NCBI GenBank assembly: GCA_016869045.1
Contig: VGFC01000001.1
Coordinates: 34,518 to 98,517, forward strand
Length of the DNA stretch: 64,000 bases
Direction of reading: 5' to 3'
From: Armatimonadota bacterium
GTDB lineage: Bacteria; Armatimonadota; Zipacnadia; Zipacnadales; VGFC01
The notes under the pieces are model-generated. The model saw nothing but the letters and a program-made list of their open reading frames with translations. It was not told the DNA's origin and did no database searches. This document shows positions 3,672-60,181 of this stretch, piece after piece. The first letter of the stretch is position 1; every line of letters begins with the position of its first letter. The position numbers and the translations under genes were made by a program.

Positions 3672-3674
3672 CCG

Positions 3675-3740: not shown

Positions 3741-3821
3741 ACCTCGCACAAGGGAACCCTCGGCCCGTGCCTGCGTTGCCTTACGTTGAGCGTCGCACAC
3801 ACTCGCCGGTGAGGTACCCCT

Positions 3822-6173
3822 TTGCGCATCGTCCTTAGCCTCGCTCTGGTCGCCGTTGTCCCCGCCGTCTGCGGCGCGGCCCCCTCCACCATCGTCCGCT
3901 TCGACTTCGAGGAGCCGACAACCGACTGGTTTGTCTCGGAGAACGACCCGAACACCTCCGGCGTCGCCGTCGTCCCGATGGCGGCTCCGAGCGGCCAGCA
4001 GGCGCTCGGGCTGACCGGCACCTTCCCGGGGTCGCTCGGCGTCAGTTACACCCCCTGGCAGGACTGGCGGCCATTCACCACGCTGAAAGTGTGGGTTCAG
4101 GTTCCCAAGGGCGCGCCCAAGGACATCGGAATCTACGCCTACCTCAAGGACCGCCAGTACCTCTGGTACCAGACCGGCCTCTTCCGCGATCCCGCGACTG
4201 ACAAGCCAACTCAGCCCCTCAAGCCCGGCGTGTGGATGTCCACCACCGTCGATCTGTCGCCCGGGTCCAAGGCCTGGAAGGCTGGCGGGCACGAGAAGTC
4301 CTGGTACCGTACCCTCTTCTACCCCCGCGAGTTTGGGATCCGCTTCTTCTCCAAGACCGCCTGGCAGGGCACCGTCTACATCGACGACATCTGCCTGATC
4401 GCTCCCGGAACGCCTCCCAAGCCGCCTACGCTTGCCGCGCTGAAGCCCACGGCCAGCGCGCAGAGCGTGGCGGTGAATGAGAAGCTCGAACTGACCTTCC
4501 CGGTGGACCGGGAGTATGACAACGTCTTCAACCCGCACGAAGTGGACGTGATGGGCCACTTCCGCAGACCCTCCGGCGCCCAGATGGAGGTGCCCGGCTT
4601 CTTCTATCAGGACTATCGGCGCACCCAGGATGAGAAGGGTTTCGAGAAGTTGATCCCCGTCGGCGCGCCAACGTGGAAGGTGCGCTTCGCGGCCGTCGAA
4701 CCCGGCAAGCACGAGTACTACGTCACGCTGAAGGACAATCGTGGCGAGGCGCGGTCACCCGCCGCGACCTTCACGGCCACACCCTCCGCCGACCCGCGGG
4801 GGCGCGTGCGCGTGAGCAAGCAGGACCCACGCTACTTCGAGTTCGAGGATGGCAGCTTCTTCTACCCGCAGGGCATCAACATGCGGGACGGCGGCAACCA
4901 GGCGGCGCAGCAGAAGGGCACCTACGACTTCGACACGTTCTTCCCGGCCTTTCAACAGGCGGGCCTGCAGTATGTACGGACGTGGATGTGCGCCTGGTGG
5001 GCGGGCATCGAGTGGACGGACAAGTACGACTCTCGCTACGACAACCTTGGCCGCTACTGCATGTACAACGCCTGGCGGATGGACCACGCGCTCGACCTGG
5101 CCGAACAGGACGACCTGTTCATCGAGCTGACCCTGAACTCCCACGGTCAGCTTCGCCGCGACAAGTTCGATGCCGAGTGGGAGTACAACCCCTACGCGGC
5201 GGCCAACGGCGGTCCGTGTGCAACGCCGTCGCTGATCTGGACCAATCCGACCGCCAAGGAGATGTTCCGGCGCCGGTACCGCTACATCGTCGCGCGTTGG
5301 GGTTACAGTCAACACATCATGTCATGGGACTTGTGGAACGAGATTGACCTGATCGATGCGTACGGGCAGCTCAGTCCCGACGTCGCCGCGTGGCATGCCG
5401 AGATGTCGAAGTACCTGCGCGACATCGACCCCTGGGAGCGCCTGATCACTACACACTACTGCTTGCACTTCATGTGGGATGCGGGCCGGTCCCTCTGGGC
5501 GGTGCCGGACATCGACTACCTGCAGGCCGACGCCTACTGGCCCCAGAAGGAGATCGGCGACGACGTCAGCCGCGCCTACGGGTTGCGGGCGGACATCGCC
5601 AAGCCCTACATGCTGATCGAGTTCGGGCCCCAGACGTCGCAGATCCCCAGCCTCAGCCGCAGCCAGATCGAGGGCTACTTCCGCATCGGCCTGTGGACGA
5701 GCGCAGTCACGCCGATGGCCGCCCCTGCCCACTTCTGGTACAACGACATCTGGCTGCGCGACAGCTACGCGCACCACCATGCGACACTCGCGAAGTTCCT
5801 GGGCAACGAGGACCGGCGCGGTGAGGGTTGGACGTGGATCAACCCCGACCCCAAGCAGAACGCCGCTGCGCCCACTACCTCGCCGCCCGAGCTGTTCGTT
5901 CACGCGATGAAGTCGCCGAAAGCCACGTACTTCTACGTGCTCAATCTCGACCGCATGCTCGCGGGGGAGGTCGGCCGCAAGCTTCCGCCCATTCAGGGCG
6001 CGGCCGTCAGCTTCCAGGGCCTCCCGGACGGCCAGTACGAGGTCGAGTTCTGGGACCCCTACGTGGGCGAGATCGTGGCGACCGCCATTGTCGCGGTCCA
6101 AGGCGGCCGCATCCAGGTCCCCCTCCCCGACTTCCTCTCCGACCTCGCCTGCAAGCTGCGCCTCACCGCCTAG
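3822..6173 (+). CDS. secreted glycoside hydrolase, clan GH-A (GH5-like catalytic domain after an N-terminal beta-sandwich domain)
   Basis: TTG start with GGTGAGG upstream. Signal peptide MRIVLSLALVAVVPAVCGAAP. The WDLWNEIDL motif (NE acid/base) is characteristic of GH5-type TIM-barrel hydrolases. Confidence 0.55.
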   Translation: MRIVLSLALVAVVPAVCGAAPSTIVRFDFEEPTTDWFVSENDPNTSGVAVVPMAAPSGQQALGLTGTFPGSLGVSYTPWQDWRPFTTLKVWVQVPKGAPKDIGIYAYLKDRQYLWYQTGLFRDPATDKPTQPLKPGVWMSTTVDLSPGSKAWKAGGHEKSWYRTLFYPREFGIRFFSKTAWQGTVYIDDICLIAPGTPPKPPTLAALKPTASAQSVAVNEKLELTFPVDREYDNVFNPHEVDVMGHFRRPSGAQMEVPGFFYQDYRRTQDEKGFEKLIPVGAPTWKVRFAAVEPGKHEYYVTLKDNRGEARSPAATFTATPSADPRGRVRVSKQDPRYFEFEDGSFFYPQGINMRDGGNQAAQQKGTYDFDTFFPAFQQAGLQYVRTWMCAWWAGIEWTDKYDSRYDNLGRYCMYNAWRMDHALDLAEQDDLFIELTLNSHGQLRRDKFDAEWEYNPYAAANGGPCATPSLIWTNPTAKEMFRRRYRYIVARWGYSQHIMSWDLWNEIDLIDAYGQLSPDVAAWHAEMSKYLRDIDPWERLITTHYCLHFMWDAGRSLWAVPDIDYLQADAYWPQKEIGDDVSRAYGLRADIAKPYMLIEFGPQTSQIPSLSRSQIEGYFRIGLWTSAVTPMAAPAHFWYNDIWLRDSYAHHHATLAKFLGNEDRRGEGWTWINPDPKQNAAAPTTSPPELFVHAMKSPKATYFYVLNLDRMLAGEVGRKLPPIQGAAVSFQGLPDGQYEVEFWDPYVGEIVATAIVAVQGGRIQVPLPDFLSDLACKLRLTA

Positions 6174-7412: not shown

Positions 7413-7607
7413 CCTGGGAGCGCGGGCTTCCAGCCGGCTGCTGTGGCAAGGCGACGTTGCCTTGCCGTTGCCGTCCACCTGGGAGCGCGGGCTTCCAGCC
7501 GGCTGCTGTGGCAAGTGGACGTTGCCTTGCCGTTGCCGTCCACCTGGGAGCGCAGGCTTCCAGCCGGCTGCTGTGGCAAGGCGACGTTGCCTTGCCGTTG
7601 CCGTTCA
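7413..7607. repeat. 3 x 65-bp perfect/near-perfect tandem repeat, each unit containing a GGCAAGGC-N6-GCCTTGCC hairpin
   Basis: Unit cctgggagcgcgggcttccagccggctgctgtggcaaggcgacgttgccttgccgttgccgtcca repeats 3 times with 2-3 substitutions. It lies between rodA and the next gene. Confidence 0.9.
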
Positions 7608-7631
7608 GCGATCAATGCAGAGCTTCGAGAG

Positions 7632-8573
7632 ATGACCGACAAACCCACGAAAACCACGGTGATCGGCTGGCAGGGCTGCACGATCACCGTGCCTGAGGAC
7701 TGGACGATCGGCGCCATCGGCGGTGATCACACTGAGGGCTACCTCCGCATCGACGGGCCGGACATGCCCCGCGTCGAAGTGAAGTTCTTCGAGCGCAAGG
7801 GGCCCGTGTCGATCGAGGAGGTCGTCGGCAGCTACCTGCGGGAGATGCAGAAGAAGCGGCGTCGCCGGGATCCCGAGGTGAAGACGAAGCGCGACACCCG
7901 CCTCTTGGGCCGGCGCCGGGGCGGGCGCGCGCAGTTGGAGACGTTCCACTGGACCGATGGCGAGCGGCAGGCGCACGGCGCGGCGTGGCAGTGCGCGCAC
8001 TGCGAGCGCACCGCCATCGTGCAGGTGCTCGGCCCGGAGGGCAAGCCGTTGGAGGACCTCGCGCGGGAGCTGATCCTCTCGGTCTCGGACCACCCCCAGG
8101 ACGGCTGGGTGACGTGGGCGACCTACGGCCTGCAGTGCGAGGTGCCCGAGGAGTTCCGGCTGGACGGGCAGAAGCTGATGGCGGGGCTGCTGGACCTCAG
8201 CTTCAAGCTGGAGACCGAGTCCATCAGCATCATGCGGTGGGGGATGGCGGATGTCGCGCTCGGCGACAAGGACCTGAAGACCTGGGCGCAGAAGGAGCTG
8301 GCCGGCCGGCTGAAGGGCTGGGACTGCACCTACGAGGAGCTGGAGTTCAACGGCCATCCCGCCATCGCCGTCTCGGGGGAGCCGAGCGGAATGCAGGCGC
8401 GGGTGCGGCGCTTCGTCCTGCACTGCATGCGCAAGCCCTACGGCAGCAACGTGCGCGTGTTGCTCTGGCACTGCCAGCCGGACAAGAAGCTGTTCTGCGT
8501 TCAGTGCATCGTGGATGACAGCCGGCTGGAACTGCCGGCCGAAGTCTGTCGCCGTCTGGTCTGCCACACCTAA
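7632..8573 (+). CDS. hypothetical protein (Cys-rich, no recognised domain)
   Basis: ATG at 7632 is in frame with track ORF 7443..8573. Upstream part of the track ORF is the tandem repeat. Product MTDKPTKTTVIGWQGC... Confidence 0.5.
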   Translation: MTDKPTKTTVIGWQGCTITVPEDWTIGAIGGDHTEGYLRIDGPDMPRVEVKFFERKGPVSIEEVVGSYLREMQKKRRRRDPEVKTKRDTRLLGRRRGGRAQLETFHWTDGERQAHGAAWQCAHCERTAIVQVLGPEGKPLEDLARELILSVSDHPQDGWVTWATYGLQCEVPEEFRLDGQKLMAGLLDLSFKLETESISIMRWGMADVALGDKDLKTWAQKELAGRLKGWDCTYEELEFNGHPAIAVSGEPSGMQARVRRFVLHCMRKPYGSNVRVLLWHCQPDKKLFCVQCIVDDSRLELPAEVCRRLVCHT

Positions 8574-31604: not shown

Positions 31605-33794
31605 ATGCACGTCGTGGCTGTCCTCTCAGTCGCGTTCCCGCTGCTTGGCCACGCTCAGGAGAGCGACGTGCGGGGGCGGCTCGGCCGGCTCACGAAGGCC
31701 GTCGAGCGGATCGAGTCCAGTGCCGCCGACCGCGATTCGGACGTGTACCGCTCGAACATCCCGCTCGCGCGCTTCAAGTTGCGGAAGGCCCTCGCGCAGT
31801 GGCGCGCGCCGTTCGAGGGGGAGGTCGAGGCCCGAGACACCCTCGACGAGGCTGCGGAGGCCCTGGACCGCCACGACGCCGGCAAGGTGGCGTTTGAGGG
31901 CGAGACGGGCCATCTCGAACGCGCCTACTTCGCTCAGAACGACGATACGGCGCAACCGTACTTCGTCTACGTCCCCGAGGACTATCAGCCGAAGCAGCGT
32001 TGGCCGTTGATCGTCTTCCTCCACGGCTACGTGCCTTACACCAGCATCATCGACCCGTGGGTGCTGTACGAGGAGCACGAGCGGATCGCGGCGGACGCGG
32101 GGGCCCTGCTCTTGACGCCGTACGGGCGCCGGAACACGGACTTCCAGGGCGTGGGCGAGGTCGATGTCCTGGCCGCCATCGAGGAGACGAAGCGGTTCTA
32201 CTCGGTCGATCCGGACCGAATCTACCTGTGCGGGCCGTCGATGGGCGGCTACGGGACGTGGACCATCGCGCTGCGCTACCCCGGCATGTTCGCGGCGTGC
32301 GCGCCGATGTGCGGGCAGACGGACATGTTCGTGTGGTGGCCGTGGCCGCACCTCACCGCGCCGAAGTGCAAGCAGTTCCTCGGCGAGTGGGATAACCCCA
32401 TCGACCTCGCGCCCAATGCCGTCGGGCAGCGCTGCTTCCTGCAACACGGGGAGTTCGACCGCCTGATCCCCATCGAGCAGTCGCATATGATGCGCTGGGA
32501 GATGGACCGGCTGGGGACGCCGATCGAGTACTACGAGCACAAGGACGCGGACCACTTCATCTACCAGCACGAGCTGTGCTTCCAGAAGGCCTTCCCGTGG
32601 CTCGTTCAGCACAAGCTCGATCGCTGGCCGAAGCACGTGCGCCTGAAGAGCTACACGTACCGCTACGACACCGCGTTCTGGCTCCGGATTCTCGAGTACC
32701 AGCGGTGGAGCCAACCGGGCCAGATCGAGGCGACCGTCGAGGGCAACCGGATCAGTCTGACGAGCCAGAACGTGGCGCAGGTGCGGCTGTCGCTCTCGAA
32801 GGAGCTGCTGGACGTCGGCCAGCCGGTCACGGTCGTGTGCGGCGGCAAGGAGGTGTTCAGCGGGGTGCCCAAGGGCGAGGCGATTACGGTGAAGCTCGCC
32901 GAGCCGCTCACCCCGGAGAAGCCGGGCGCGATCCGCAAGCGGAAGGGCCTGTGCGGGCCGCTGGAGGATGTGCTCAACGGGCCGTTCGTCGTCGTGCCGG
33001 GCACCGCGGGCTCACAGGACCAGACGCAGGAACTGACGGACCGCGCGACCAAGTGGTGCGCGGAGTGGGACGCCTTCGCGGACGGCATCCCGCCTGTCAT
33101 GCTCGACACTGACGTCGATGAGAAGACCATCGCCGAGCGCAACCTCGTGCTGTTCGGCACGCCGGAGACGAACCAGGTCATCGCGGACATCGCCGACCGG
33201 CTGCCTGTGAAGATCGCGGAGGATGGCTACACTCTCGGCGGTCACACCTACACCGGCCCCGACCTCGGGCTGGCCCTCTGCTACCCGAATCCGAAGAACC
33301 CTGAGCGTTACGTTCTCATCTACGCCGGCGAAGACCCGGGCACCAACCTGGGGATCAACCACAAGCACGACCTGCTGCCCGACTACTTCATCTTCCGCGC
33401 GGGCGAGAAGAACGGCTACGACGACACTTACCCCCACCTGTGTGCCGGCTTCTTCGATCTCAACTGGGAGTTCGACCCGACGCTGATGGACGCCGAAGCC
33501 GCCCCTGCCGACCCCTACTTCGGCTCGGCGACCCTGGTCCGCGATGCCACGCTCACCCAGCCCGTGGCGAAGGTCACCAACGGCTACGCCGACCCGCTCC
33601 GCGTGACCATCGATCGCGGCGAGGAGGCAGTCATCCAGCCGGGCGAGTCCATCGAGCGGAGCCTCGAACCGGGACGGCACCTGTTCACGGGCGTCTGCCC
33701 GGACGGTGTCACACGCACCGAACAGCGGCTGATGGTACCGGAGTTCCGATACGAGTGGAGGGTCCCGGCGCTGTTCCCGGCGGGGTGGCCGTAA
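31605..33794 (+). CDS. secreted alpha/beta-hydrolase (S9 prolyl-oligopeptidase/esterase-like)
   Basis: ATG with GGAGGTG upstream. Signal peptide MHVVAVLSVAFPLLGHAQ. Nucleophile elbow LCGPSMGGYG (GxSxG). Confidence 0.6.
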   Translation: MHVVAVLSVAFPLLGHAQESDVRGRLGRLTKAVERIESSAADRDSDVYRSNIPLARFKLRKALAQWRAPFEGEVEARDTLDEAAEALDRHDAGKVAFEGETGHLERAYFAQNDDTAQPYFVYVPEDYQPKQRWPLIVFLHGYVPYTSIIDPWVLYEEHERIAADAGALLLTPYGRRNTDFQGVGEVDVLAAIEETKRFYSVDPDRIYLCGPSMGGYGTWTIALRYPGMFAACAPMCGQTDMFVWWPWPHLTAPKCKQFLGEWDNPIDLAPNAVGQRCFLQHGEFDRLIPIEQSHMMRWEMDRLGTPIEYYEHKDADHFIYQHELCFQKAFPWLVQHKLDRWPKHVRLKSYTYRYDTAFWLRILEYQRWSQPGQIEATVEGNRISLTSQNVAQVRLSLSKELLDVGQPVTVVCGGKEVFSGVPKGEAITVKLAEPLTPEKPGAIRKRKGLCGPLEDVLNGPFVVVPGTAGSQDQTQELTDRATKWCAEWDAFADGIPPVMLDTDVDEKTIAERNLVLFGTPETNQVIADIADRLPVKIAEDGYTLGGHTYTGPDLGLALCYPNPKNPERYVLIYAGEDPGTNLGINHKHDLLPDYFIFRAGEKNGYDDTYPHLCAGFFDLNWEFDPTLMDAEAAPADPYFGSATLVRDATLTQPVAKVTNGYADPLRVTIDRGEEAVIQPGESIERSLEPGRHLFTGVCPDGVTRTEQRLMVPEFRYEWRVPALFPAGWP

Positions 33795-33855
33795 GGCAAC
33801 GAAAACGGGAAGAGATTCGAGGACCAGAAGAACGACGAAGACGGCAACGGCCCCT
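33793..33855 (+). repeat. solo copy of the aaggcaacgaaa-gggaaga-attcgaag...gaagacgg repeat family (left boundary of lower-GC island)
   Basis: aaggcaacgaaaacgggaagagattcgaggaccagaagaacgacgaagacggcaacgg is ~80% identical to the repeat at 56271-56345 that flanks GxxExxY gene #2. Confidence 0.65.
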
Positions 33856-50084: not shown

Positions 50085-51815
50085 ATGCCGCAACGCACCA
50101 CCTGCACCCTCAGCGACGGGACCGAGGTCCCGATCTTCACGGTCCAGACGCTCATCATCGGGAGCGGGGCGGCGGCGCTGAACTGCGCCGAGCACCTGTG
50201 GGAGATGGGCGTGAGGGACCTCGCCATTGCCACCGACAACCTCGGCGGCGGCACCAGCAACAACTCGGGCTCCGACAAGCAGACGTACTACAAGGTCGGC
50301 ATCTTCGGGGATACGCCCGACAGCCCGCTGGACTTCGCGAAGGCGCTCACCGGCGGAGGGATGTGCCACGGGGACATCGCCTACTGCGAGGCGCTCGGGT
50401 CCGCGCCGGAGTTCTTCCACCTCGTCCGCAACGGCGTGCCCTTCCCCTCGAACCGCTACGGGGCGTACGTGGGCTACAAGACCGACCACGACCCGCGCCA
50501 GCGAGCGACGTCCGCCGGGCCGAAGACCTCGATGTTCATGTTCGGCAAGTCCCTCGTCAACGTCCGTCGGCAGGGCACGCCGATCTTCGATGGGCACGAG
50601 GTCATCGCGCTCCTGACCGCGGGGACGGCCGACGAGAAGCGCGTCATCGGGGCGCTGGCGTGTGTCCTACCCCCCGACCCCCCTTCCTCCAGAAGGGGGG
50701 TCAACGGCTTGGCGCTGGTCCTGTTCAGCGCGGAGAACGTCGTGATGGCGACGGGCGGGCCGGGGGAGCTGTACGCGGAGAGCGTCTACCCGCACGGGCA
50801 GATCGGCAACCACGGGATGGCGCTGGAGATCGGCGCGAAGGCGAACAACCTCTCCGAGTCGCAGTACGGTCTCGCCTCGATCGGGTATCGGTGGAATCTC
50901 TCGGGCACGTACCAGCAGGTGGTGCCGGCGTACTTCAGCGTGGACGAGGCGGGCAACACGCGCCACTTCCTCAACGACTACCACGACACCATGCGCCGCG
51001 AAGCGACGAACATCTTCCTGAAGGGCTACCAGTGGCCGTTCCACGCCGCGCGGCTGCAGAATCAGGGCTCGTCGCTTGTAGACATCGCGGTCTACAACGA
51101 GCGGCAGGCCGGGCGGCGCGTGTACATGGACTTCATGCGGAACCCGGCGTCCGACGGCGGGGCCACCGCATCCATGAGCGAGGCCGCTCATGCCACGCCA
51201 TTGGAGGCCTTCAGCCTCGACAACATGGAGGACGAGGCGGTTACGTACCTGCAGCGGTCGGGCGCGCTGCAGAGGACGCCGTACGAGCGCCTCGCCCACA
51301 TGAACCAGCCGAGCATCGACCTGTACGCCGAGCACGGCGTGGACTTGAGGGAGCCGCTCGAGATCGCGGTCTGCGCGCAACACAACAACGGCGGGCTGGT
51401 CGGCAACCTCTGGTGGGAGTCGAACATCCGGCACCTCTTCCCCATCGGCGAGCTGAACGGCAGCCACGGCGTGCGGCCGGGGGGCAGCGCGCTGAACGCG
51501 GGGCAGGTCGGCGGCCTGCGCGCCGCGACGTACATCGCGAACGTCTACACCGGCCGCCCTCTTGAGCCGCGCCAGTTCCTCGCCGTCGCCGCCCCGCAGG
51601 TGGAGCGGGAACTCGCGAAGATCAAGCAGATGCTGAGCAGCCGCTCGGGCGTCGATTCGGACGGTCTTCGGAAGGACATCCAGGCCCGCATGAGCCGTCA
51701 CGCGGCCTTCGTGCGCAGCGTCTCGGGCGTCGCGCAAGCCGTCGAAGAGGCGCGGCGCCAGTGGGCGGAGGTGAAGGCGAAGGGCGTGCGCGCCGACGGG
51801 CCGGACGGCCTGTGA
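50085..51815 (+). CDS. FAD-binding oxidoreductase (SdhA/FrdA/NadB flavoprotein superfamily-like) with a 27-bp in-frame palindrome
   Basis: IIGSGAAALNCAEHL dinucleotide-binding motif. A palindrome gaccccccttcctccagaaggggggtc at 50677-50703 encodes PDPPSSRRGV. Confidence 0.6.
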   Translation: MPQRTTCTLSDGTEVPIFTVQTLIIGSGAAALNCAEHLWEMGVRDLAIATDNLGGGTSNNSGSDKQTYYKVGIFGDTPDSPLDFAKALTGGGMCHGDIAYCEALGSAPEFFHLVRNGVPFPSNRYGAYVGYKTDHDPRQRATSAGPKTSMFMFGKSLVNVRRQGTPIFDGHEVIALLTAGTADEKRVIGALACVLPPDPPSSRRGVNGLALVLFSAENVVMATGGPGELYAESVYPHGQIGNHGMALEIGAKANNLSESQYGLASIGYRWNLSGTYQQVVPAYFSVDEAGNTRHFLNDYHDTMRREATNIFLKGYQWPFHAARLQNQGSSLVDIAVYNERQAGRRVYMDFMRNPASDGGATASMSEAAHATPLEAFSLDNMEDEAVTYLQRSGALQRTPYERLAHMNQPSIDLYAEHGVDLREPLEIAVCAQHNNGGLVGNLWWESNIRHLFPIGELNGSHGVRPGGSALNAGQVGGLRAATYIANVYTGRPLEPRQFLAVAAPQVERELAKIKQMLSSRSGVDSDGLRKDIQARMSRHAAFVRSVSGVAQAVEEARRQWAEVKAKGVRADGPDGL

Positions 51816-52138
51816 AGGCGATCCAGAACGAGCACCTGTGCCTGACGCAGCTCTGCTTCCTCGAGACCATTCAGGCGCTCATCGAGCGCGGCGGAGGTAG
51901 CCGGGGCGCGTATGTCATCCTCGACGACGAGGGCGACCTATGGGTCGAGACGAAGCGCGGCCGGGAGCTTCAGCACCGCAGCGAGAACGAGGCGCTGCGC
52001 AAGGAGATTCTCGAGACGAAGGTCAACGACGACGGGAGCCTCGACGTGTACCCGGCCGAGGTGAGGCCGCTGCCCGAGGATGACTCGTGGTACGAGACGA
52101 CGTGGCGCGAGTGGCAGGAGAAGCGGGTCTACGGATGA
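51812..52138 (+). CDS. small hypothetical protein, translationally coupled (GTG overlapping upstream stop)
   Basis: The ctGTGAagg overlap means the start overlaps the upstream stop. About 108 aa, acidic. Confidence 0.35.
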   Translation: MKAIQNEHLCLTQLCFLETIQALIERGGGSRGAYVILDDEGDLWVETKRGRELQHRSENEALRKEILETKVNDDGSLDVYPAEVRPLPEDDSWYETTWREWQEKRVYG

Positions 52139-52150
52139 CGACCTAACCAC

Positions 52151-52190
52151 AAAGACCGCGAAGAAGGCACGAAGAACGACGACAGAAGGG
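52151..52190 (+). repeat. left inverted repeat flanking GxxExxY gene #1 (aaagaccgcgaagaaggcacgaagaacgacgac)
   Basis: Reverse complement recurs at 52660-52700. Confidence 0.7.
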
Positions 52191-52243
52191 ACGGAACGAC
52201 CACGGACGCACCGGGACATGCACAGCGGCGAGAGTACGGGGAG

Positions 52244-52621
52244 GTGCCCGCGCATGTTGAGCGCGCCGCCTCCACCGTGGTGGACGCCGCCATCGCCGTG
52301 CACCGAGCCCTCGGCCCAGGGCTGCTGGAGTCACTCTACGAGAGGTGCCTCGCCTATGAGCTGAGCAAGCGGGGGCTCGAGGTGAGGACGCAGGTGGCGC
52401 TGCCGGTCGTGTATGACGGGGTCACGTTCGACGATGGCCTGCGCCTGGACATCCTGGTCGAGGACTGCCTGGTCGTGGAGGTGAAGGCCGTGGAGGCGCT
52501 GCAGCCCATTCATGAGGCGCAGCTGTTGACCTACCTGAAGCTCCTGGCCATGCCTTTGGGTTTCCTGCTCAACTTCAACGTCACTCGCATGAAGCTCGGT
52601 ATCAGGCGTTTCCGGCGGTAG
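52244..52621 (+). CDS. GxxExxY-family small protein (PD-(D/E)XK-like, tentative), paralog 1
   Basis: GPGLLESLYERCLAYEL carries the GxxExxY signature. About 125 aa. 61% identical over most of its length to the ORF at 56387-56795. Confidence 0.6.
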   Translation: MPAHVERAASTVVDAAIAVHRALGPGLLESLYERCLAYELSKRGLEVRTQVALPVVYDGVTFDDGLRLDILVEDCLVVEVKAVEALQPIHEAQLLTYLKLLAMPLGFLLNFNVTRMKLGIRRFRR

Positions 52622-52659
52622 GGCTGGTCTTTGCCCTAGTCGGGCCGCAGTAGCATGGC

Positions 52660-52700
52660 CCTCTTTGTGTGTCTTCGTGCCTTCTTTGCGGTCTTCGTGG
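52660..52700 (-). repeat. right inverted repeat flanking GxxExxY gene #1
   Basis: ctcgaaccacgaagaccgcaaagaaggcacgaagacac is the reverse complement of the 52151-52190 repeat. Confidence 0.7.
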
Positions 52701-52733
52701 TTCGAGCCGTTCCCTGGCAAAGGAGCCCAGCCG

Positions 52734-53756
52734 ATGAGCAAGCCCAAGGTGTTGTACGTGCCGACGGACGGACACACGAAGCGCGTGTTCCGCGACGAGA
52801 CGTTCGCGCGGATGTGCGAGCAGTTCGAGGTGACGGTCAACGACACCGGCGCGGAGCTGGACCCCGATGAGGTCGCGGCGTGGGTCACGGGCTGCGACGG
52901 GCTGGTGACCGGCTGGGGCTCGCGGGCGCTATCGGAGGCCGTGTTCACCCAGGCGCCTGACCTGAAGATCATCGCGCACTCCGCGGGCTCCGTGAAGTTC
53001 CTGGTTACCCGCGAGATGATCGACGAGTACCTCCTCCCGCGGGGGATCGTGCTGTTCAGCGCGAACGTGGCCATCGCGCTCAACGTGGCGGAAGCCGCCG
53101 TCGGGATGCTGATCATGGCGTCCCGCCGCTGGGTCGATCACAACGCCCACTACCACCAGACCGGCCAGTGGCGCTCGTCGGACATCCCGATCAACGGTCA
53201 GTACCTCCGCGGCTGCAAGCTCGGGCTGATCTCCGCCAGCGCCGTCGCGCGTGAAGTGATCCGCCTGCTGCAGAACTGGGACATCGAGCTCCTGGTCTAT
53301 GATCCGTACCTCTCCGAGGAGGCCGCAGCGAAGCTGGGCGTGCGCAAGGTGGGGCTGAACCAACTCTTCGAGGAGGCGGACCACGTCTCGGTACACGCGC
53401 CGAAGCTGCCCGAGACCGACAAGCTCATCGGCCGCGAGCAGCTTCGCCTGCTGAAGGACGGGGCGGCGTTCGTGAACACCGCGCGCGGCTCGGTGATCGA
53501 CGAACAGGCCCTCATCGAGGAGGCCCAAACGGGCCGCATCTTCGTGGCCCTGGATGTGACCGAGCCCGAGCCTCCGGCCCCGGACCATCCGTTCCAGCAC
53601 ATGCCGAACGTCTACATCTCGCCCCATACGGCCGGCGCTGGGTACTTCGGCTACTTCGGGATCGGGGAGACGACGGTGCAGGCTCTCGAGGATGCGTTCG
53701 CCGGGCGGCCGGTCGAAGGCGCGGCGCCGCTGGAGCGGTGGGAACAACTGGCGTAG
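52734..53756 (+). CDS. D-isomer-specific 2-hydroxyacid dehydrogenase family protein
   Basis: AAGGAG RBS. NAD-binding and catalytic blocks (ARG...RGSVIDEQAL, ...SPHTAG). Confidence 0.75.
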   Translation: MSKPKVLYVPTDGHTKRVFRDETFARMCEQFEVTVNDTGAELDPDEVAAWVTGCDGLVTGWGSRALSEAVFTQAPDLKIIAHSAGSVKFLVTREMIDEYLLPRGIVLFSANVAIALNVAEAAVGMLIMASRRWVDHNAHYHQTGQWRSSDIPINGQYLRGCKLGLISASAVAREVIRLLQNWDIELLVYDPYLSEEAAAKLGVRKVGLNQLFEEADHVSVHAPKLPETDKLIGREQLRLLKDGAAFVNTARGSVIDEQALIEEAQTGRIFVALDVTEPEPPAPDHPFQHMPNVYISPHTAGAGYFGYFGIGETTVQALEDAFAGRPVEGAAPLERWEQLA

Positions 53757-53770
53757 GGACGGCGACGATA

Positions 53771-53807
53771 GGGGAAGATTCGAAGACTTGAAGAACGGCG
53801 AAGACGG
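53771..53807 (+). repeat. solo copy of ggggaagattcgaagacttgaagaacggcgaagacgg repeat
   Basis: Identical to the 56290-56326 copy. Lies between the 2-HADH stop and the transporter start. Confidence 0.85.
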
Positions 53808-53810
53808 AGC

Positions 53811-56270
53811 ATGAGAACGACCGCGGCGATGCCGCTCCTCATCCTGCCCCTCCTGCCCACATGCGGTAGAGCGCAACTGCCGACCGCGGGCCCGGTCGCT
53901 GTTGAGATTCCCATCTTCGAGGGCGGGGAGGGGATGGACTTCTTCTTCCAGGCGGCCCGCGCCTACGAGAAGGCGGCCCCGGAGGTCACCGTCGATCTCT
54001 ACGGCGACCCGCGCATCGCCGACAAGGTGCGCGTGCGCGTTCTGGAGGGCACGTTCCCCGACATCACCAACGCAGGCCTGAATTACTGGGCGCTCATCAA
54101 GACCGGGGACGTGATGCCGCTCGACGAGTTCCTGAAGCAACCGAACTGGGAGAAGGACTCCACCTGGCGCGACTCGTTCATGCCCGGCGCGCTGGACCGC
54201 TACACCTGGCAGGGCCACACGTACGGCATCCCGTTCCTCTACTCGATCTACGCCATCTGGTACAACAAGACGATGTTCGAGGAGCAGGGCTGGACGCCGC
54301 CGGAGACCTGGGACGAGTTCCTGGCGCTGTGCAAGAAGATCAAGGACGCGAAGATCCCCAGCGGCTACTACAACTTCGAGTACTTCAACAAGAGCGAGAC
54401 ACCGCGGCCCAAGACGCTGCTGGAGTACAACGGTCTCAACGACACGTACAAGGGCCTGCCGGACGACGCGGCGACGCAGGTGTACCCGCTGTCATTCCAG
54501 GGCCAGTACCACGGCTACGCACAGGGCCTGATCGACTCGGCCTTCTATTACCAGGCCGGTAGAGACCGGTATCTTGCGCAGAAGAACATCGAGCCCGGCA
54601 GCTTCGACAACCCGGAACTCATCAAGAGCCTCGGCCTCGTGCAGGAGCTCGCCACGCAGTACTTCGAGCCCGGCTGCATGGGGCACAGCCACACGATGGC
54701 GCAGGAGCGGTTCTTCAACGGGAAGACCGCGATGATCCCCTGCGGCTCGTGGCTGAAGAGCGAGATGCTCGGGAAGATCCCCGACGGCTTCCGGCTGGGG
54801 GCCTTCAACCTGCCACGCCTGCCGGGCAAGGGCGACCCCACAGCCGTCTACACCTCCACGAGCTACTACTTCTCGTTCCGCAAGGCCCAGCATCCCAGAG
54901 AGGGCCTCGAGTTCCTGCGCTTCATGACCTCGCGCGCGCAGGCCGGCAAGTTCTGCAAGATGCGCGACATCATCGCGGCCGTGAAGGGCTCCGCCGAGGG
55001 CAACGTTACCACTGACATGCTCGATGTGCTCGCGATCGCGAACAAGGCGCGCACGAGCTACGGCGCCGCCCCCGGCGAGGGCTTCCCCGAGTTCGATCAG
55101 TACTGGACCGACGCCCGGTTTGGGATCCTCACCGGGAAGCTGACGCCCGAACAGGCGGCGAAGAACCTGGAGGCGGGCGCCCAGCAGGTCCGGGCCCGCG
55201 CCAAGAACCCCGACCAGATCACCGTGCGACATCGCGTGGAGCCCGGCATCCTTCTGGGCCTGCTGAGTCTGGCAGTGGTCTACACCCTCATGACGACGGT
55301 CCGCCGCTGGATCATCGCGCGGCGCGAGACGCGGGGGAGCATCGAGGCCAAGCGCGTCGGGTTGAGTTCGCTTTCCATCCTCATCTTCGTCGGGCCGGCC
55401 GCGCTGCTGTATACGGTGTTCGTGGTGATCCCCAGCGCCCGGTCCTTCTGGTGGAGCACCCAGCGGTGGGACGGGCTGACCAACATGCAGTACGTCGGCC
55501 TGCAGCACTTCAAGCGGCTGTTGTTCGAGAGCGACCCCTTCTGGACCGCGCTCAAGAACAACCTCTTCATCATGCTCGTCATCCCGCTGTTCGTCATCCC
55601 GCTATCGCTGTTCCTGGCGACCTGCATCAGCCGCGGGCTGAAGGGATCAACCGTCTTCCGGATCGTCTTCTTCTTCCCGAACATCCTCGGCGCCGTGGCG
55701 GCCACGCTCCTCTGGATGCACCTGTATGAGCCGAACGGCGGGCTGGTGAACCGGGTGCTGGTCTTCCTGACCGGCCTGCTGCACCTGGGGCCAGCGCTCA
55801 AACTGATCGGTGTCCAGTCCTTCCAGGGGTTCGCGTGGCTGAGCCAGGAGCACCTGTACTGGGCCCTCATCCCGATGTCGATCTGGGGCGCCTGCGGCTT
55901 CAACATGCTGCTGTACCTCGCGGCGATGGAGGGCATCCCGCATGACCTCTATGAGGCCGCCCAGATCGACGGCGCTTCAGCCTGGCGGCAGTTCTGGACG
56001 ATCACCCTCCCGCTCATCTGGGACGTGCTCTCGATCTCCATCGTCTTCATGATCATCGGCGGCATGAAGGCCTTCGAGACCATCTGGCTGCTCACCAACC
56101 AGACCCCCACCACCGAAACGCATGTCATCGGCACCCGCATGGTGCAGGCGATGTTCACCGAGTTCAAGGTCGGCGAGGCGACCGCCATCGCCGTCCTGCT
56201 CTTCCTGATGGTCTTCTTCGGCACCGCCGCGACGCTGAGGCTGATGCGGAGGGAGACGGTAGAATACTGA
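53811..56270 (+). CDS. sugar ABC transporter: family-1 extracellular solute-binding protein fused in one ORF to a MalF/UgpA-type permease
   Basis: N-terminal ~410 aa is SBP-like with a signal peptide. The C-terminal ~400 aa has 6 TMs and the EAAQIDGAS permease signature. No stop between them in this sequence. Confidence 0.6.
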   Translation: MRTTAAMPLLILPLLPTCGRAQLPTAGPVAVEIPIFEGGEGMDFFFQAARAYEKAAPEVTVDLYGDPRIADKVRVRVLEGTFPDITNAGLNYWALIKTGDVMPLDEFLKQPNWEKDSTWRDSFMPGALDRYTWQGHTYGIPFLYSIYAIWYNKTMFEEQGWTPPETWDEFLALCKKIKDAKIPSGYYNFEYFNKSETPRPKTLLEYNGLNDTYKGLPDDAATQVYPLSFQGQYHGYAQGLIDSAFYYQAGRDRYLAQKNIEPGSFDNPELIKSLGLVQELATQYFEPGCMGHSHTMAQERFFNGKTAMIPCGSWLKSEMLGKIPDGFRLGAFNLPRLPGKGDPTAVYTSTSYYFSFRKAQHPREGLEFLRFMTSRAQAGKFCKMRDIIAAVKGSAEGNVTTDMLDVLAIANKARTSYGAAPGEGFPEFDQYWTDARFGILTGKLTPEQAAKNLEAGAQQVRARAKNPDQITVRHRVEPGILLGLLSLAVVYTLMTTVRRWIIARRETRGSIEAKRVGLSSLSILIFVGPAALLYTVFVVIPSARSFWWSTQRWDGLTNMQYVGLQHFKRLLFESDPFWTALKNNLFIMLVIPLFVIPLSLFLATCISRGLKGSTVFRIVFFFPNILGAVAATLLWMHLYEPNGGLVNRVLVFLTGLLHLGPALKLIGVQSFQGFAWLSQEHLYWALIPMSIWGACGFNMLLYLAAMEGIPHDLYEAAQIDGASAWRQFWTITLPLIWDVLSISIVFMIIGGMKAFETIWLLTNQTPTTETHVIGTRMVQAMFTEFKVGEATAIAVLLFLMVFFGTAATLRLMRRETVEY

Positions 56271-56289
56271 GGGAGGGAAGGCAACGAAA

Positions 56290-56326
56290 GGGGAAGATTC
56301 GAAGACTTGAAGAACGGCGAAGACGG
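56290..56326 (+). repeat. left inverted repeat flanking GxxExxY gene #2
   Basis: ggggaagattcgaagacttgaagaacggcgaagacgg. The reverse-complement variant lies at 56841-56880. Confidence 0.85.
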
Positions 56327-56386
56327 CCAGGCAAGGGGTACGGCAACGGCCAAGGCCGAGGCCACGGCAGCAGGCGAGGCGCGGCG

Positions 56387-56795
56387 TGTGGGGCCACGGC
56401 TGGCCGATGAGGTCGAGCGGATCGGCGCCCAGGTTGTGGACGCGGCCTACACCGTACACCAGGCGCTGGGGCCGGGGCTGTTGGAGTCTGTGTATGAGGC
56501 CTGCCTCGCCCACGAACTGGGGAAGCGTGGACTGACAGTGCGCACGCAGGTTCCCATGCCGGTAACCTATGATGGGGCGCGGTTCGAGGCGGGCTTCCGC
56601 CTGGACATGCTCGTGGAAGAGCAAATGGTGGTTGAGGTCAAGGCTGTCGAGGCCATCCTCGGAGTGCACATTGCGCAGTTGCGCACGTATCTGAAGCTCT
56701 CGGGGCTTCAGCTCGGGTTCCTGATGAACTTCAACGTGGCGCTGTTCAGAACGGGGATCAGGAGGGTGACCGTGGGCGCAAGTGTCCGCGCCTAG
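56387..56795 (+). CDS. GxxExxY-family small protein, paralog 2, inserted between the two ABC permease genes
   Basis: GTG start. GPGLLESVYEACLAHEL signature. Shares the C-terminal block AQLRTYLKLSGLQLGFLMNFNV with paralog 1. Confidence 0.6.
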
Positions 56796-56840
56796 CCCTG
56801 CGCCGTTGCCTTGGTCGTCACCATGGCCTTGCCTTGCCGT

Positions 56841-56880
56841 GTCGTCTTCGCCGTTCTTCGAATCTTCGAATCTTCCCCTT
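56841..56880 (-). repeat. right inverted repeat flanking GxxExxY gene #2
   Basis: gtcgtcttcgccgttcttcgaatcttcgaatcttcccc is the reverse complement of the 56290-56326 family, with one unit variant. Confidence 0.8.
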
Positions 56881-56898
56881 TCGTGGGGGAGGTGGCCA

Positions 56899-57750
56899 AT
56901 GCAGAAGCGATTCTCGATATGGGACCCGTTGATCTACCTGGTCCTGCTGACCTACTTCCTGGTCGTCGTGTACCCGATGGTGTGGCTGCTATACACTTCG
57001 CTGAAGACGGACAAGGCCATCTTCCTCAACCCGTTTGAGCTACCGCCTTTGCGCCATCTGCAATGGGCGAACTTCGCCAACGCCTGGACGAAGGGGAACT
57101 TCGGGGACTACTTCTTCAACAGCGTCGCCATGACCGTGATGACGGTCGGGCTGGTGGTGCTGCTCTCGTCGATGGCGGCCTACGCGCTGAGCCGCTTCCA
57201 CTTCCGCGGGGCGCGGCCGCTGTTCTTCTACTTCCTGGCGGGGCTGATGATCCCGCTGCAGTTGGGGATCGTGCCGCTGTTCTTCCAGATGAAGGACCTG
57301 CACCTGTTGAACTCGCGGTGGGGCCTGCTGACGGCCTACGTCGCGTTTGGGATGCCCTTCTCGATCTTCATCCTGACGGGCTTCTTCAAGTCGCTCCCGT
57401 CGGCGCTCTACGAGTCCGCGCTCATCGACGGCGCCAGCGACTTCCGCGCGTTCTGGTCGATCATGCTACCGCTCGCGCGGCCGGGCCTCATCACGGTGGC
57501 GATCTTCTCGTTCCTGGGCACCTGGAACGAGTTCTTCATGGCCTTCATGTTCCTCTCCGGCAAGGGGTCCGAGCACCTGCGCACGCTGCCTCTGGGCCTC
57601 GCCAACCTCACCATCGTGAGCCAGTACCGGTCCGACTGGGGCATGGCCTTCGCGGGGCTGGTGCTGGTCATGCTCCCCACGCTACTTGTCTACTCCCTCC
57701 TGCAGAAGCACCTCAGCAAGGGAATCACCATGGGCGCGCTGAAGGGGTAG
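56899..57750 (+). CDS. sugar ABC transporter permease (MalG/UgpE-type)
   Basis: GGGGGAGG RBS. ESALIDGASDFRAFWSIMLPL EAA-loop signature. 6 TMs. Confidence 0.8.
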   Translation: MQKRFSIWDPLIYLVLLTYFLVVVYPMVWLLYTSLKTDKAIFLNPFELPPLRHLQWANFANAWTKGNFGDYFFNSVAMTVMTVGLVVLLSSMAAYALSRFHFRGARPLFFYFLAGLMIPLQLGIVPLFFQMKDLHLLNSRWGLLTAYVAFGMPFSIFILTGFFKSLPSALYESALIDGASDFRAFWSIMLPLARPGLITVAIFSFLGTWNEFFMAFMFLSGKGSEHLRTLPLGLANLTIVSQYRSDWGMAFAGLVLVMLPTLLVYSLLQKHLSKGITMGALKG

Positions 57751-57768: not shown

Positions 57769-59712
57769 ATGCTGATCTCGATCCTTCTCTCTGCGACTAC
57801 CGTCAATGCTGCCGGGCCGGATGACCCCTCACCGTTCGGCATCGTGTGCCCGTGGCCGAAGGTCGGCGAGACGGGCGCGCGATGGGTGCGGTGCGGCGCG
57901 GGGGCGACGCAGCTTGTGGACTGGGGCGCCGTCGAGCCCGAGGCGGGCAGGTTTGTCTGGGACGGTGCGGACAGCGAGTTGGTGAAGTGGGACAAGCCGG
58001 AGGGCCTGACGCCGCTGCCGATTCTGGCCTATACCGCGCCGTGGGCGTCGAGCGGACTGGATGGTGACCGCGCGTGTCCGCCGCGCGACCTGCGGGACTA
58101 CGCGCGGTTCGTGCGGGAGAGCGTGGCGCGGTACAAGGGCGACATTCGCTACTGGGAGGTCTGGAACGAGGAGAACATCGAGTTCTTCAAGGGCACGATC
58201 CCCCAGTACGTGGACATGCTGAAGATCGCCTCGATTGCGGCGCGGCAGGCCGACCCCGAGGCGCGGGTCGTCTTCGGTGGGACGGCGGGCGTGGATTCGC
58301 GGTTCATCGAGCGCTGCTACGAACTGGGAACGGGTCCGTACTTCGACGTGATGGCGGTGCACCCGTACCAGTGGGGGCGCACGTTCAACGACGGCTGGAA
58401 CCGCGACAAGATGACGCGGCTACGGTCCGTCATGGACCGATTCGGCGGCGCGCGGGTGCCGATCTGGTGCACGGAAATCGGCTGGTCCACGGGTGAGGGC
58501 GTCAGCAACGAGGACCAGGCGCGGCTGCTCGTGCAGGCGTTCGTCGGCAACCTCGCGCTGAAGGACCTGGGCATCGCGAAGGTCTTCTGGTTCTGCGTGA
58601 AGGACTGGGGCGGTCCGGGGCACGGCATCTTCGCGGACGACGGCTCGCGCAAGCCGGCCTTCGAGGCCTACCGCATCGTGACGCGCGAACTCGAGGGCAC
58701 GGTGCCCGTGGGGCGCCTGGACACCGGGGACGTCCGGTGCCATGCGTTCTGCGACCTGGATGGGCAGCGCGCGGTCTTGGTCTTCTGGTCGCCGACGCTG
58801 GAGCCGATGCCGCTGGCGCTGCCGAAGCTGGGGGGTGAGTTCACCGTCGTTGACCTCAACGGACGCGAACAGCGCCTGACCGGCGAGCAGCTTCCCCAGC
58901 TCACCGCGACCCCGGAGCCGAGTTACCTGCGGCTGCCGCCGGAGGCACTCGCTGCTTTGCTGCCCGCTGACGCAACCCTCCGCCCAGCAGCGTACTGGTC
59001 GCCGCCGGACCGACCGGCGACGCCGCCGTGGTGGCCGTCGGTGCAGATTCCGGAGGGCACGTCGCGGTTGTGTTTCGTCCTCGGCGAGACGCGCGAGGTG
59101 AGCGTGGATCTGTGGAACCTGGGGGCTGAACCGCAACAGGCGACGGTCACGGTGTCACTGCTCGGCGAACAGGACCGTGTGCTGGCGGCGGATGACCGGC
59201 GTTGCCCTCTGCCGGCAGATGCCTGTACACCGGCACTCCTCAGCCTCGCAGTTCCGCCCGGTCTGGCGCCCGGACTGACCCCGATGGTCGTCTCCCTCCG
59301 AACCGAGGCAGACCCTCGCCCTATCGAGTACCGGCTCGCGGTCCGCGTCGCCCAGGGCCCGACCATCGAGTTCCTCGCCAACAGCCACGTCGAGCGGTCG
59401 GTCTATCTGCAGCCCGGCCACGAGAGCGGCTGCTCGGAGTCGTGCCGCTTCGGCAAGACGTGGACCTACGCCTTCGATGTGCCGTTCGCGTGCGAGGCGG
59501 AGCTGCAGATGCTGCTCGGCGCGCACTTGGCAGGACCGTTCGCGGTGCGCTACTCGCAGGACGGCAACGAGTGGAAGACGCTGCTCGACGGTCGCGGCGA
59601 CCGCGCGTGGCGCCAGGCGACCCTCACCAACCTGCAGCCGGGCAAGCTCTACCTGCGCTTCGCGGGCGAGAACGTGCAGCTCGATGAGTTGGTGCTAACG
59701 TGGGTGCGGTGA
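57769..59712 (+). CDS. secreted glycoside hydrolase, clan GH-A (GH5/GH39-like) with C-terminal beta-sandwich domain
   Basis: Signal peptide. Catalytic-pair motifs YWEVWNEEN (acid/base) and IWCTEIGWST (nucleophile). Confidence 0.55.
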   Translation: MLISILLSATTVNAAGPDDPSPFGIVCPWPKVGETGARWVRCGAGATQLVDWGAVEPEAGRFVWDGADSELVKWDKPEGLTPLPILAYTAPWASSGLDGDRACPPRDLRDYARFVRESVARYKGDIRYWEVWNEENIEFFKGTIPQYVDMLKIASIAARQADPEARVVFGGTAGVDSRFIERCYELGTGPYFDVMAVHPYQWGRTFNDGWNRDKMTRLRSVMDRFGGARVPIWCTEIGWSTGEGVSNEDQARLLVQAFVGNLALKDLGIAKVFWFCVKDWGGPGHGIFADDGSRKPAFEAYRIVTRELEGTVPVGRLDTGDVRCHAFCDLDGQRAVLVFWSPTLEPMPLALPKLGGEFTVVDLNGREQRLTGEQLPQLTATPEPSYLRLPPEALAALLPADATLRPAAYWSPPDRPATPPWWPSVQIPEGTSRLCFVLGETREVSVDLWNLGAEPQQATVTVSLLGEQDRVLAADDRRCPLPADACTPALLSLAVPPGLAPGLTPMVVSLRTEADPRPIEYRLAVRVAQGPTIEFLANSHVERSVYLQPGHESGCSESCRFGKTWTYAFDVPFACEAELQMLLGAHLAGPFAVRYSQDGNEWKTLLDGRGDRAWRQATLTNLQPGKLYLRFAGENVQLDELVLTWVR

Positions 59713-59938
59713 GGAGGAGAGAGGTCAGCGGCGACGGCGAACCGTGCGGGACAGGGCGCGGTGCTGTTCGACCACAGTGATAGCGCCCAGCAGCGACTCC
59801 GGCAAGCGCGTGGAGATGAGCCGAAGGACACGGGCGATTCGCCAAACCCAGGTCGCGGACGTCAGCCGCTGCGTAGCCCAACTCCTCGATGGCACCGGCC
59901 AAGTTGCGGGGCATGTTCTCGTCAATGAGGAACTGCAT
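59624..59938 (-). pseudogene. DUF5615-type (PIN-like) toxin remnant: only the first ~35 codons conserved
   Basis: MQFLIDENMPRNLAGAIEELGYAAADVRDLGLANR matches the family N-terminus. All three downstream frames are non-homologous. The ORF tail overlaps the convergent GH gene. Confidence 0.45.
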
Positions 59939-59941
59939 GTG

Positions 59942-60181
59942 CTATGCGACCGGCAAGGCAGTGATGTTCATCTTCACCATGATGTCGGCTGCAAAGGCCA
60001 GTGCGGCGTCGATGTCCTCGACCTTGAGTCCATAGGCCTCCGCCACCTCCTCCCTGGTCATGCCTCCTGACAGTGACCCTATCACGACCCAGACCATAAC
60101 CCTGGTGCCGGTGATGACCGCAGCACCGTGGCAAACCTCCGGATCGACGCTGATTCGTGGGGCGATCTCCATAGGCTGCAC
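59942..60181 (-). CDS. DUF433-domain protein (antitoxin-like partner of DUF5615)
   Basis: ISVDPEVCHGAAVITGTRVMVWVVIGSL...EEVAEAYGLKVEDIDAALAFA matches the DUF433 pattern. It ends 4 nt upstream of the DUF5615 remnant. Confidence 0.6.
   Translation of the reverse strand: MQPMEIAPRISVDPEVCHGAAVITGTRVMVWVVIGSLSGGMTREEVAEAYGLKVEDIDAALAFAADIMVKMNITALPVA

Follow-up and report, generated by a model that had tools for sequence, protein, structure and literature searches.

Two repeat-bracketed GxxExxY genes in an Armatimonadota genome: candidate nucleases of a widespread palindromic repeat system

We analysed a 64-kb stretch of DNA (the window; positions 34,518 to 98,517 of contig VGFC01000001.1, from an Armatimonadota bacterium recovered in JGI lake metagenomes) that contains two small genes of the GxxExxY family, each enclosed by a pair of inverted repeats. 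The gene order is a FAD-binding oxidoreductase (50085-52138), element 1, a 2-hydroxyacid dehydrogenase (52734-53756), an orphan repeat, a fused solute-binding protein (SBP)/permease gene (53811-56270), element 2 and a second permease gene (56899-57750). The only open reading frame (ORF) within each cassette encodes a PD-(D/E)XK nuclease. The coordinates of the repeat arms and of the two genes are listed in Table 1.

Table 1. Repeat arms and GxxExxY genes in the window.
Feature	Position	Strand	Description
Left arm, element 1	52145..52175	+	canonical type: AACCAC then three units (AAAGA-CCGCGAAGA-AGGCACGAAGA)
GxxExxY paralog 1	52244..52621	+	125 aa, GTG start; PD-(D/E)XK nuclease with E6, E29, D69, E79, K81
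Right arm, element 1	52672..52702	-	reverse complement of the element 1 left arm
Orphan arm, type 2	53757..53807	+	remaining half of a gene-less hairpin doublet that is complete in relative L033
Left arm, element 2	56284..56336	+	divergent type, GAAGA units at 8-nt spacing; imperfect pairing to ~56384
GxxExxY paralog 2	56388..56795	+	135 aa, GTG start; between the fused SBP-permease and second permease genes
Right arm, element 2	56832..56884	-	inverted-repeat partner of 56284-56336
Degenerate orphan arm, type 2	33797..33849	+	immediately 3' of a stop codon; nhmmer E = 2.9e-7

An inverted-repeat search yielded arms of 31 nt for element 1 (94% complementary, 496 nt apart) and of 53 nt for element 2 (91% complementary, 495 nt apart). 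The original prediction had placed inverted repeats around both genes, and the arms lie where it expected them or directly adjacent. With gaps, the pairing in element 2 reaches ~100 nt (56284-56384 versus 56786-56884). A 24-nt core of element 1 occurs twice in the window at up to one mismatch, compared with zero expected from 100 shuffles. The left arm of element 1 fits the family-wide arm consensus described below, and this element is a textbook example of it. Element 2 is a divergent arm variant that retains the GAAG part of the units at a spacing of 8 nt. A relationship between the two arm types through shared cores had been suggested; the relationship goes beyond such cores, both being variants of one family-wide architecture.

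Two solo repeat copies had been predicted as well. The copy at 53771-53807 agrees with element 2's left arm at 37 of 37 positions (0 matches in shuffles), and the similarity forms a 61-nt direct repeat (90%) that extends as far as the preceding gene's stop codon. The second copy, placed at 33793-33855, is present but degenerate. A profile derived from the arms detected exactly six copies in the window, namely the four arms, the perfect orphan and the degenerate orphan near 33800; this search found no others.

Both ORFs belong to the GxxExxY/PDDEXK_3 family, with PF13366 E-values of 3e-42 and 2.2e-40 (144 and 138 bits, cut-off 22) and TIGR04256 scores of 147.9 bits for paralog 1 and 140 bits for paralog 2 (cut-off 35). 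The paralogs share 66% identity over 118 aa, and the window contains no third one. Paralog 2 sits between the transporter genes as predicted, but the start proposed for it (56387) is out of frame; the true start is the GTG codon at 56388, and the JGI gene call agrees with this extent. The name-giving motif reads GPGLLESLYE and GPGLLESVYE in the two proteins. In an alignment of 20 sequences that includes both of them, D69, E79, K81, E29 and Q93 are invariant. The suggested likeness to PD-(D/E)XK nucleases is borne out by a restriction-endonuclease-like fold in which the D...ExK site is intact. Its closest structural relatives are DNA nucleases of the Cas4/RecB type, from which GxxExxY proteins differ by the lack of an iron-sulphur cluster module and of a CRISPR context, by about half the size and by their own GxxExxY motif. 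A sequence search of the PDB gave no match at E <= 1.

Tandem-fused GxxExxY proteins of 266-295 aa (P0241-P0245) keep the D...ExK residues in the first half and have lost them in the second. Since such single-chain fusions exist, the short form would work as a dimer. GxxExxY is thus probably a minimal, dimeric PD-(D/E)XK nuclease, and the fusions imply that some lineages have a version with one active site. In a representative library the family comprises 20,567 clusters (E <= 1e-3, 50% identity).

We compared the window with relatives ranked by the identity of the fused transporter protein, i.e. L033 (~89%), L122 (87%), L123 (77%; Candidatus Zipacnadales), L124 (69%) and L125 (63%). L033 carries both GxxExxY genes at the window's two positions, together with arms. 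In L122 element 2 is present with its repeats; gene 1 is absent from site 1, which holds a 100-nt gene-less hairpin of type-2-like arms instead. The transporter genes are joined without a repeat in L123, L124 and L125, with junctions of 55 nt, 13 nt and 11 nt, respectively. Empty sites are thus found in relatives, and the claim that one cassette splits an ABC transporter operon holds. Where relatives have the genes at these positions (L033 and L122), the repeats are there as well; the case named in the original prediction as refuting it, the gene in place without repeats, did not occur in them. These comparisons support the view that the cassettes are derived insertions. As site 2 is occupied in the window, L033 and L122 and empty in L123-L125, element 2 split the operon before the first three diverged. 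Of a former doublet, one half survives as the orphan at 53771: the orthologous spacer of L033 contains a complete hairpin (7559-7599 plus 7628-7667), and the window copy (53757-53807) does not fold.

The synonymous divergence (dS) of host genes between the window and L033 is ~0.5, and the proportion of differing synonymous sites (pS) is 0.35-0.40. Over the same distance the arms have remained 87-97% identical, with 29 of 31 positions shared by the left arm of element 1 and its ortholog and 37 of 38 by the core of element 2, whereas the inner spacers (60-68%) are near the neutral level (~60-65%). Two changes occurred in both arms of an element, namely GAAGAT (window) versus GAAGAC (L033) for type 2 and ACCGC (window) versus ACCAC (L033) for type 1. 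The ratio of nonsynonymous to synonymous divergence (dN/dS) of the GxxExxY genes is 0.10-0.12 between the window and L033 and 0.19-0.27 in comparisons with L122; paralog 2 gives 0.12-0.19. At their present sites, both the arms and the ORFs evolve under purifying selection.

The orphan at 53771-53807 has exactly the sequence of element 2's left arm and matches its own L033 ortholog at only ~31 of 37 positions, so copies exchange sequence within a genome. These two arm copies (53771-53807 and 56290-56326) are 2.5 kb apart, identical to each other and each different from the L033 ortholog, which indicates gene conversion or re-copying within the genome. We also observed that the GxxExxY orthologs of the window and L033 differ by a dS of 1.1-1.2, about twice that of the flanking host genes, despite the highly conserved arms.

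A protein-based metagenome scan provided 80 GxxExxY loci, those most similar to the query (48-63% identity), and 76 independent ones among them had enough flanking sequence to be tested for inverted repeats. Each locus was scored by the best local alignment between its upstream 220 nt and its reverse-complemented downstream 220 nt. This gave a median of 43, compared with 16.9 for shuffled flanks and 18.5 for mismatched locus pairs, and a score of at least 30 was reached by 58 of 76 real loci, 0 of 76 shuffled ones and 8 of 76 mismatched pairs. The same arrangement occurs in isolate genomes of Bacteroides finegoldii (order radA / GxxExxY / FAD-dependent protein), Bernardetia, Sphingomonas (fabD / GxxExxY / fabG) and Gemmatirosa. 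The bracketed-gene architecture is common to at least seven bacterial phyla, among them Armatimonadota, Planctomycetota, Chloroflexota, Gemmatimonadota and Bacteroidota. Upstream neighbours are co-oriented with the GxxExxY gene in 52 of 68 cases and downstream neighbours in 58 of 73 (crude ORF method), and all gene-called loci agree. Where one genome has two paralogs (the window, L033 and L099), each comes with its own arm type. Viral contigs contained a single GxxExxY locus, so this is not a phage feature; a plasmid collection contained 7 records with such a gene, too small a number to take a census of gene-carrying copies.

In two related metagenomic genomes (L044 and L052, ~900-4400) a GxxExxY element is located ~1 kb downstream of tRNA-Trp. 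In L044 the element is also downstream of tRNA-Tyr and tRNA-Gly, an insertion into a conserved housekeeping region.

The arms of the family have a common design. The outer end follows the consensus T (70%) - T/G - A/C - A (91%) - C (90%) - C, and sequence similarity stops abruptly at this boundary. The inner part is built up from 7-nt units C-R-C-N-R-A-G with a period of 8-10 nt; three units are present in 107 of 118 arms and four in the other 11. The conserved ends point outward in 41 elements and inward in 3. The left arm ends ~36 nt before the conserved N-terminus, the right arm begins ~12 nt past the stop codon, and the whole element has a median length of ~515 nt. A strict three-unit motif occurs 176 times in the 664 kb of loci and not at all after shuffling, and 147 of the occurrences lie within 300 nt of a GxxExxY gene.

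The remaining 29 occurrences are away from a gene and represent single arms or arm-loop-arm hairpins. Gene-less hairpin doublets with loops of 6-30 nt were found at site 1 of L122 and at 7559-7667 of L033, and also in L061, L077, L078 and L110. Doublets fold as predicted DNA hairpins, with z-scores of -6.9 (L033, 7550-7675), -11 (L122, 3752-3862) and -16 (L127, 2795-2890). In L061 the hairpin is 3 kb from a gene-carrying element with the same arm sequence. Gemmatirosa kalamazoonensis has a frameshifted GxxExxY gene between two complete hairpin doublets, and there the doublet occupies at least 40 and at least 39 places on two megaplasmids (at least 79 on 2.1 Mb), compared with 2 GxxExxY places. 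A 50-kb stretch of this genome contains five doublets and a lone arm; they belong to two subfamilies, and the ends are TGAAC/CGAAC...GTTCA throughout. No other cargo gene was found between arms in the 664 kb of loci; partner arms of single matches were part of the local GxxExxY element, or the pair enclosed no ORF.

We also searched for the repeat pattern in representative genome contigs, a set to which the window's own genome does not belong. This search gave 29 matches, none adjoining a GxxExxY gene. Most were discarded as chance matches in coding DNA of unrelated taxa, and only those from Armatimonadota and Gemmatimonadaceae are real orphan arms. An orphan repeat in a Gemmatimonadaceae contig (JANNLH010000198.1; L030, 1-570) is located ~340 nt past the 3' end of a 23S rRNA gene and is the only rRNA-adjacent repeat that we saw.

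Covariation between protein and repeat was assessed at 79 loci that have four or more units, by setting every alignment column of the protein against the nucleotides in the majority at unit positions 4-5. A single column stood out, with a mutual information of 1.28 bits (z = 18.9). In paralog 1 this column is E6, where the N-terminal helix begins. Among 67 loci with E, D or N at residue 6, glutamate goes with (G/A/T)A at 37 loci, aspartate with C(A/G) at 14 and asparagine with (A/G)G at 14, which leaves 2 exceptions. Both window paralogs (E with GA units) and the isolates, among them Gemmatirosa (N with AG units), obey this rule. The codon of residue 6 is ordinary coding sequence, 15-100 nt away from the arms. 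Judged by the rest of the protein, 8 of 9 loci of the D/CA class have an E-type nearest neighbour. In three distance trees of the rest of the protein (132 branches), the residue changes on 14-17 branches, the unit class on 16-17, and both change on the same branch in 13-15 cases. The covariation is therefore not the effect of a single clade. Direct, sequence-specific recognition of the units by the protein would be its simplest reading.

Based on these results we consider it probable, on balance, that the two cassettes are resident copies of a widespread system of repeat plus nuclease, in which the GxxExxY protein recognises its own flanking repeats. A broader proposal is more tentative and may well prove too sweeping: that GxxExxY proteins are the cognate nucleases of pan-bacterial palindromic repeats resembling REPINs, an independent invention without HUH chemistry and with a one-residue code. 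REPINs are hairpin-forming doublets made from REP (repetitive extragenic palindromic) sequences, which are associated with REP-associated tyrosine transposases (RAYTs) (Bertels and Rainey 2011, PMC3116915).

We propose the following mechanism for this system. Each unit is a cassette of ~0.5-0.6 kb (arm, GxxExxY gene, inverted arm) that resides in an intergenic spacer, usually co-oriented with its neighbours. Within its own arms the nuclease would read the 7-nt units; unit positions 4-5 would be specified by residue 6, which belongs to the N-terminal helix, and cleavage would take place at or near the conserved arm ends. The nuclease would then be to this repeat family what a RAYT is to its REPINs. 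Arms without a gene are found too, in hairpin doublets (two inverted arms around a short loop) and as single arms that decay. Spread would most likely involve nuclease-induced breaks for which another copy acts as repair template, the arms providing the homology. We infer this break-induced copying from the hydrolytic nature of the nuclease, the lack of target-site duplications and the exchange between copies, and we regard it as the likeliest route because the element encodes no strand-transfer enzyme.

Several points weigh against this interpretation. In the lineage of the window the elements look like stable, old residents rather than mobile ones. The original prediction had the element moving its own gene, and here it found no support: inspection of the flanks of 41 elements and 6 doublets revealed no target-site duplication, and an all-versus-all comparison of elements and flanks detected orthologous loci only, and no two loci had an element in common but different flanks. 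No DNA-joining enzyme is encoded by the element. That the arms are bound and cut is deduced from the covariation and the fold, and the way in which copies spread is likewise a deduction. The covariation rule comes from the closest 80 loci of a family of ~20,000 clusters, and the trees behind it are simple distance trees. No clear inverted repeat is present at 18 of 76 loci. The high copy number of the repeat was seen in Gemmatirosa, compared with six arms in the 64 kb of the window. Finally, a distant homolog (37% identity) on the Prevotella nigrescens plasmid NZ_CP082843.1 (L132, 1300-2000) is accompanied by direct repeats of ~70 nt, and another small ORF follows it; this may be a different style of cassette.

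A serious rival, though an unlikely one, casts GxxExxY as a free-standing homing endonuclease gene, and palindromic repeats that were already there as the sites it invades. The dimer would recognise the closely spaced arms of a gene-less doublet and cut in or near the loop, and repair against a copy that carries the gene would bring the gene in via arm homology. Arms 500 nt apart would then mark an immune site, and the doublets would spread by other means. Homing endonucleases with a PD-(D/E)XK fold exist, e.g. I-Ssp6803I; they are small restriction-fold nucleases encoded by the sole gene of a selfish insertion. GxxExxY, a nuclease with no joining activity, resembles them in being such an enzyme and the only gene, and in having both occupied and empty homologous sites, as for site 2 (occupied in the window, L033 and L122; empty in L123-L125). 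The gene sits between arms that elsewhere form doublets with short loops, the gene-less doublet of L061 matches the nearby gene-carrying element in arm sequence, and the protein-repeat covariation would equally fit target recognition. However, in Gemmatirosa and at several metagenomic loci a complete doublet stands on either side of the gene, which itself is not inside one, and the arm type of the gene-less hairpin at site 1 of L122 is not that of the window's gene-carrying element. The strong purifying selection at a fixed site over a dS of ~0.5-1.2 is unlike the cycle of gain, decay and loss that is usual for homing genes. In further contrast to I-Ssp6803I, the GxxExxY gene is not in an intron or intein, and the sequences that it apparently reads lie in the element's own flanks.

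It is quite improbable that the arms act in RNA instead, by pairing into a long stem of the polycistronic transcript, with the GxxExxY ORF closed off by it. This stem would be cut by RNase III or by the GxxExxY protein, so that the flanking cistrons are uncoupled or stabilised, and the 7-nt units would be RNA-binding sites. The S23p protein, a four-helix bundle, belongs to elements of this kind. The precedent is the intervening sequence (IVS) of the 23S rRNA of Coxiella burnetii, which carries an S23p ORF (PMC4990558). Like the cassettes, the IVS is an insertion of ~0.4-0.6 kb within a host transcription unit, with one small ORF and a stem formed by its ends. In predicted mRNA folds of the two elements the arms do enclose the entire ORF (z = -7.6 and -2.9), 77-79% of neighbours are co-oriented, coordinated changes in both arms have kept the pairing, and in five of five orphan arms of this lineage the purine-rich strand is the sense strand. 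In the wider data set, however, single arms have no orientation bias (3 forward versus 5 reverse). Arm mismatches of the G:T and A:C kind are equally frequent (34 versus 34), i.e. there is no wobble bias on the sense strand. BLAST of the E. coli rRNA against all loci placed none of the 80 in an rRNA gene, and the region 51800-57200 had no Rfam match at E <= 1. The ORF families differ as well (PD-(D/E)XK here, four-helix-bundle S23p in the IVS), and doublets on both sides of a gene would be left unexplained. The absence of a G:U excess, the absence of loci from rRNA genes and the DNA nucleases as closest folds together favour a role at the DNA level.

Very improbable, in our view, is a GxxExxY protein that serves as a host or defence factor, with arms that are only operators or regulatory sites (for example in autoregulation) and repeats that spread independently. 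Long vertical retention and low dN/dS would suit such a factor, as would the frequent location inside housekeeping operons (fabD-fabG), downstream of radA or in a tRNA-rich housekeeping region, and the covariation points to recognition, not to cutting. On the other hand, the catalytic residues are invariant in the 20-sequence alignment, and neither the dozens of gene-less copies nor the conserved outer ends with their sharp boundaries would be explained by autoregulation. That the repeats are incidental to the gene, as terminator-like hairpins or leftovers of unrelated repeats, can hardly be correct: loci without repeats and orphan arms without a gene do exist, but the absence of matches in shuffles, the spread over at least seven phyla, the proximity of 147 of 176 motif matches to a GxxExxY gene, the conservation of the arms above the neutral rate and the covariation all contradict it.

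For the system of repeat plus cognate nuclease that we prefer, REPIN/RAYT is a closer analogy than a MITE (miniature inverted-repeat transposable element) with its transposase. In both systems short intergenic repeats occur as singlets that decay, as inverted, hairpin-forming doublets and as clusters; each repeat subfamily adjoins and flanks its own small nuclease gene and, in the GxxExxY system as seen in Gemmatirosa, far outnumbers it; and the gene is kept in the long term at a fixed site under purifying selection. The enzyme is different, a 125-aa PD-(D/E)XK nuclease in place of an HUH Y1 transposase of the IS200/IS605 type. A single arm is not palindromic and consists of three 7-nt units behind a T-(T/G)-(A/C)-A-C-C end, and it bears no counterpart of the GTAG or CGTC tetranucleotide conserved at the end of REP sequences (PMC3733652). 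Furthermore, GxxExxY genes are often present in multiple copies and found in many different spacers, and the system spans many phyla. As both the enzyme and the repeat design differ, it is an analogue of REPIN/RAYT and not a member.

The original prediction of a MITE-like selfish family was right in that the cassettes are derived insertions with gene-less versions, but the repeats are not exclusive to the genes. With MITEs and terminal-inverted-repeat transposons the elements share inverted ends with sharp boundaries, repeated sub-terminal motifs, intergenic insertion and a gene-carrying form beside more numerous gene-less ones. They differ by the lack of a DDE or other strand-transfer enzyme and of detectable target-site duplications, and near-identical gene-carrying copies in different contexts were not seen.

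Some features of the neighbourhood are recorded here. The 684-aa FAD_binding_2 gene (50085-52138) is split into two ORFs (50085-51815 and 51761-52138) by a 1-nt deletion at 51805-51815 relative to an otherwise identical JGI contig (L001), which is either an assembly error or a pseudogene. The fusion of SBP and first permease (819 aa, 53811-56270) is kept in hundreds of relatives from Armatimonadota and Planctomycetota. Within the part of this gene that encodes the signal peptide, a pyrimidine-rich stretch resembles a right arm (53829-53870; L122, 5030-5065). It is clearest in L122 (gccgtcttcgccgctcttcctaccttc) and may be a decayed arm that was absorbed into the coding sequence. On the minus strand at 59624-60181, a 79-aa ORF and an adjoining 104-aa ORF resemble a small pair of the toxin-antitoxin type; the homologous position of L122 is called DUF433. 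A scan for sigma-70 promoters and terminators, which is uninformative for this phylum, gave nothing above chance.

Recognising the cassettes and arms would improve gene annotation. Inside operons such as those of the sugar ABC transporter and fabD-fabG, cassettes and orphan arms create spurious N- and C-terminal extensions; examples are 'HQDTK' stretches in the protein alignment and the C-terminus of the Sphingomonas protein, where the right arm is read through.

The only functional entry for the GxxExxY family that we found in the literature lists its function as 'Unknown' (PMC3424549). We found no description of an association between GxxExxY genes and repeats in the open-access literature, and prior work elsewhere is possible. 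PF13366/TIGR04256 is one of the larger prokaryotic families without a function, and the link to a defined repeat architecture now offers it a concrete hypothesis open to bench tests, with a predicted residue for specificity. If the hypothesis is true, a one-residue code (E with NA, D with C, N with RG) would make the specificity predictable and re-programmable. The lifestyle known from REPIN/RAYT, long persistence of short repeats together with a dedicated enzyme, would then have arisen more than once, on different enzyme chemistry, which would bear on how short repeats persist in bacterial genomes.

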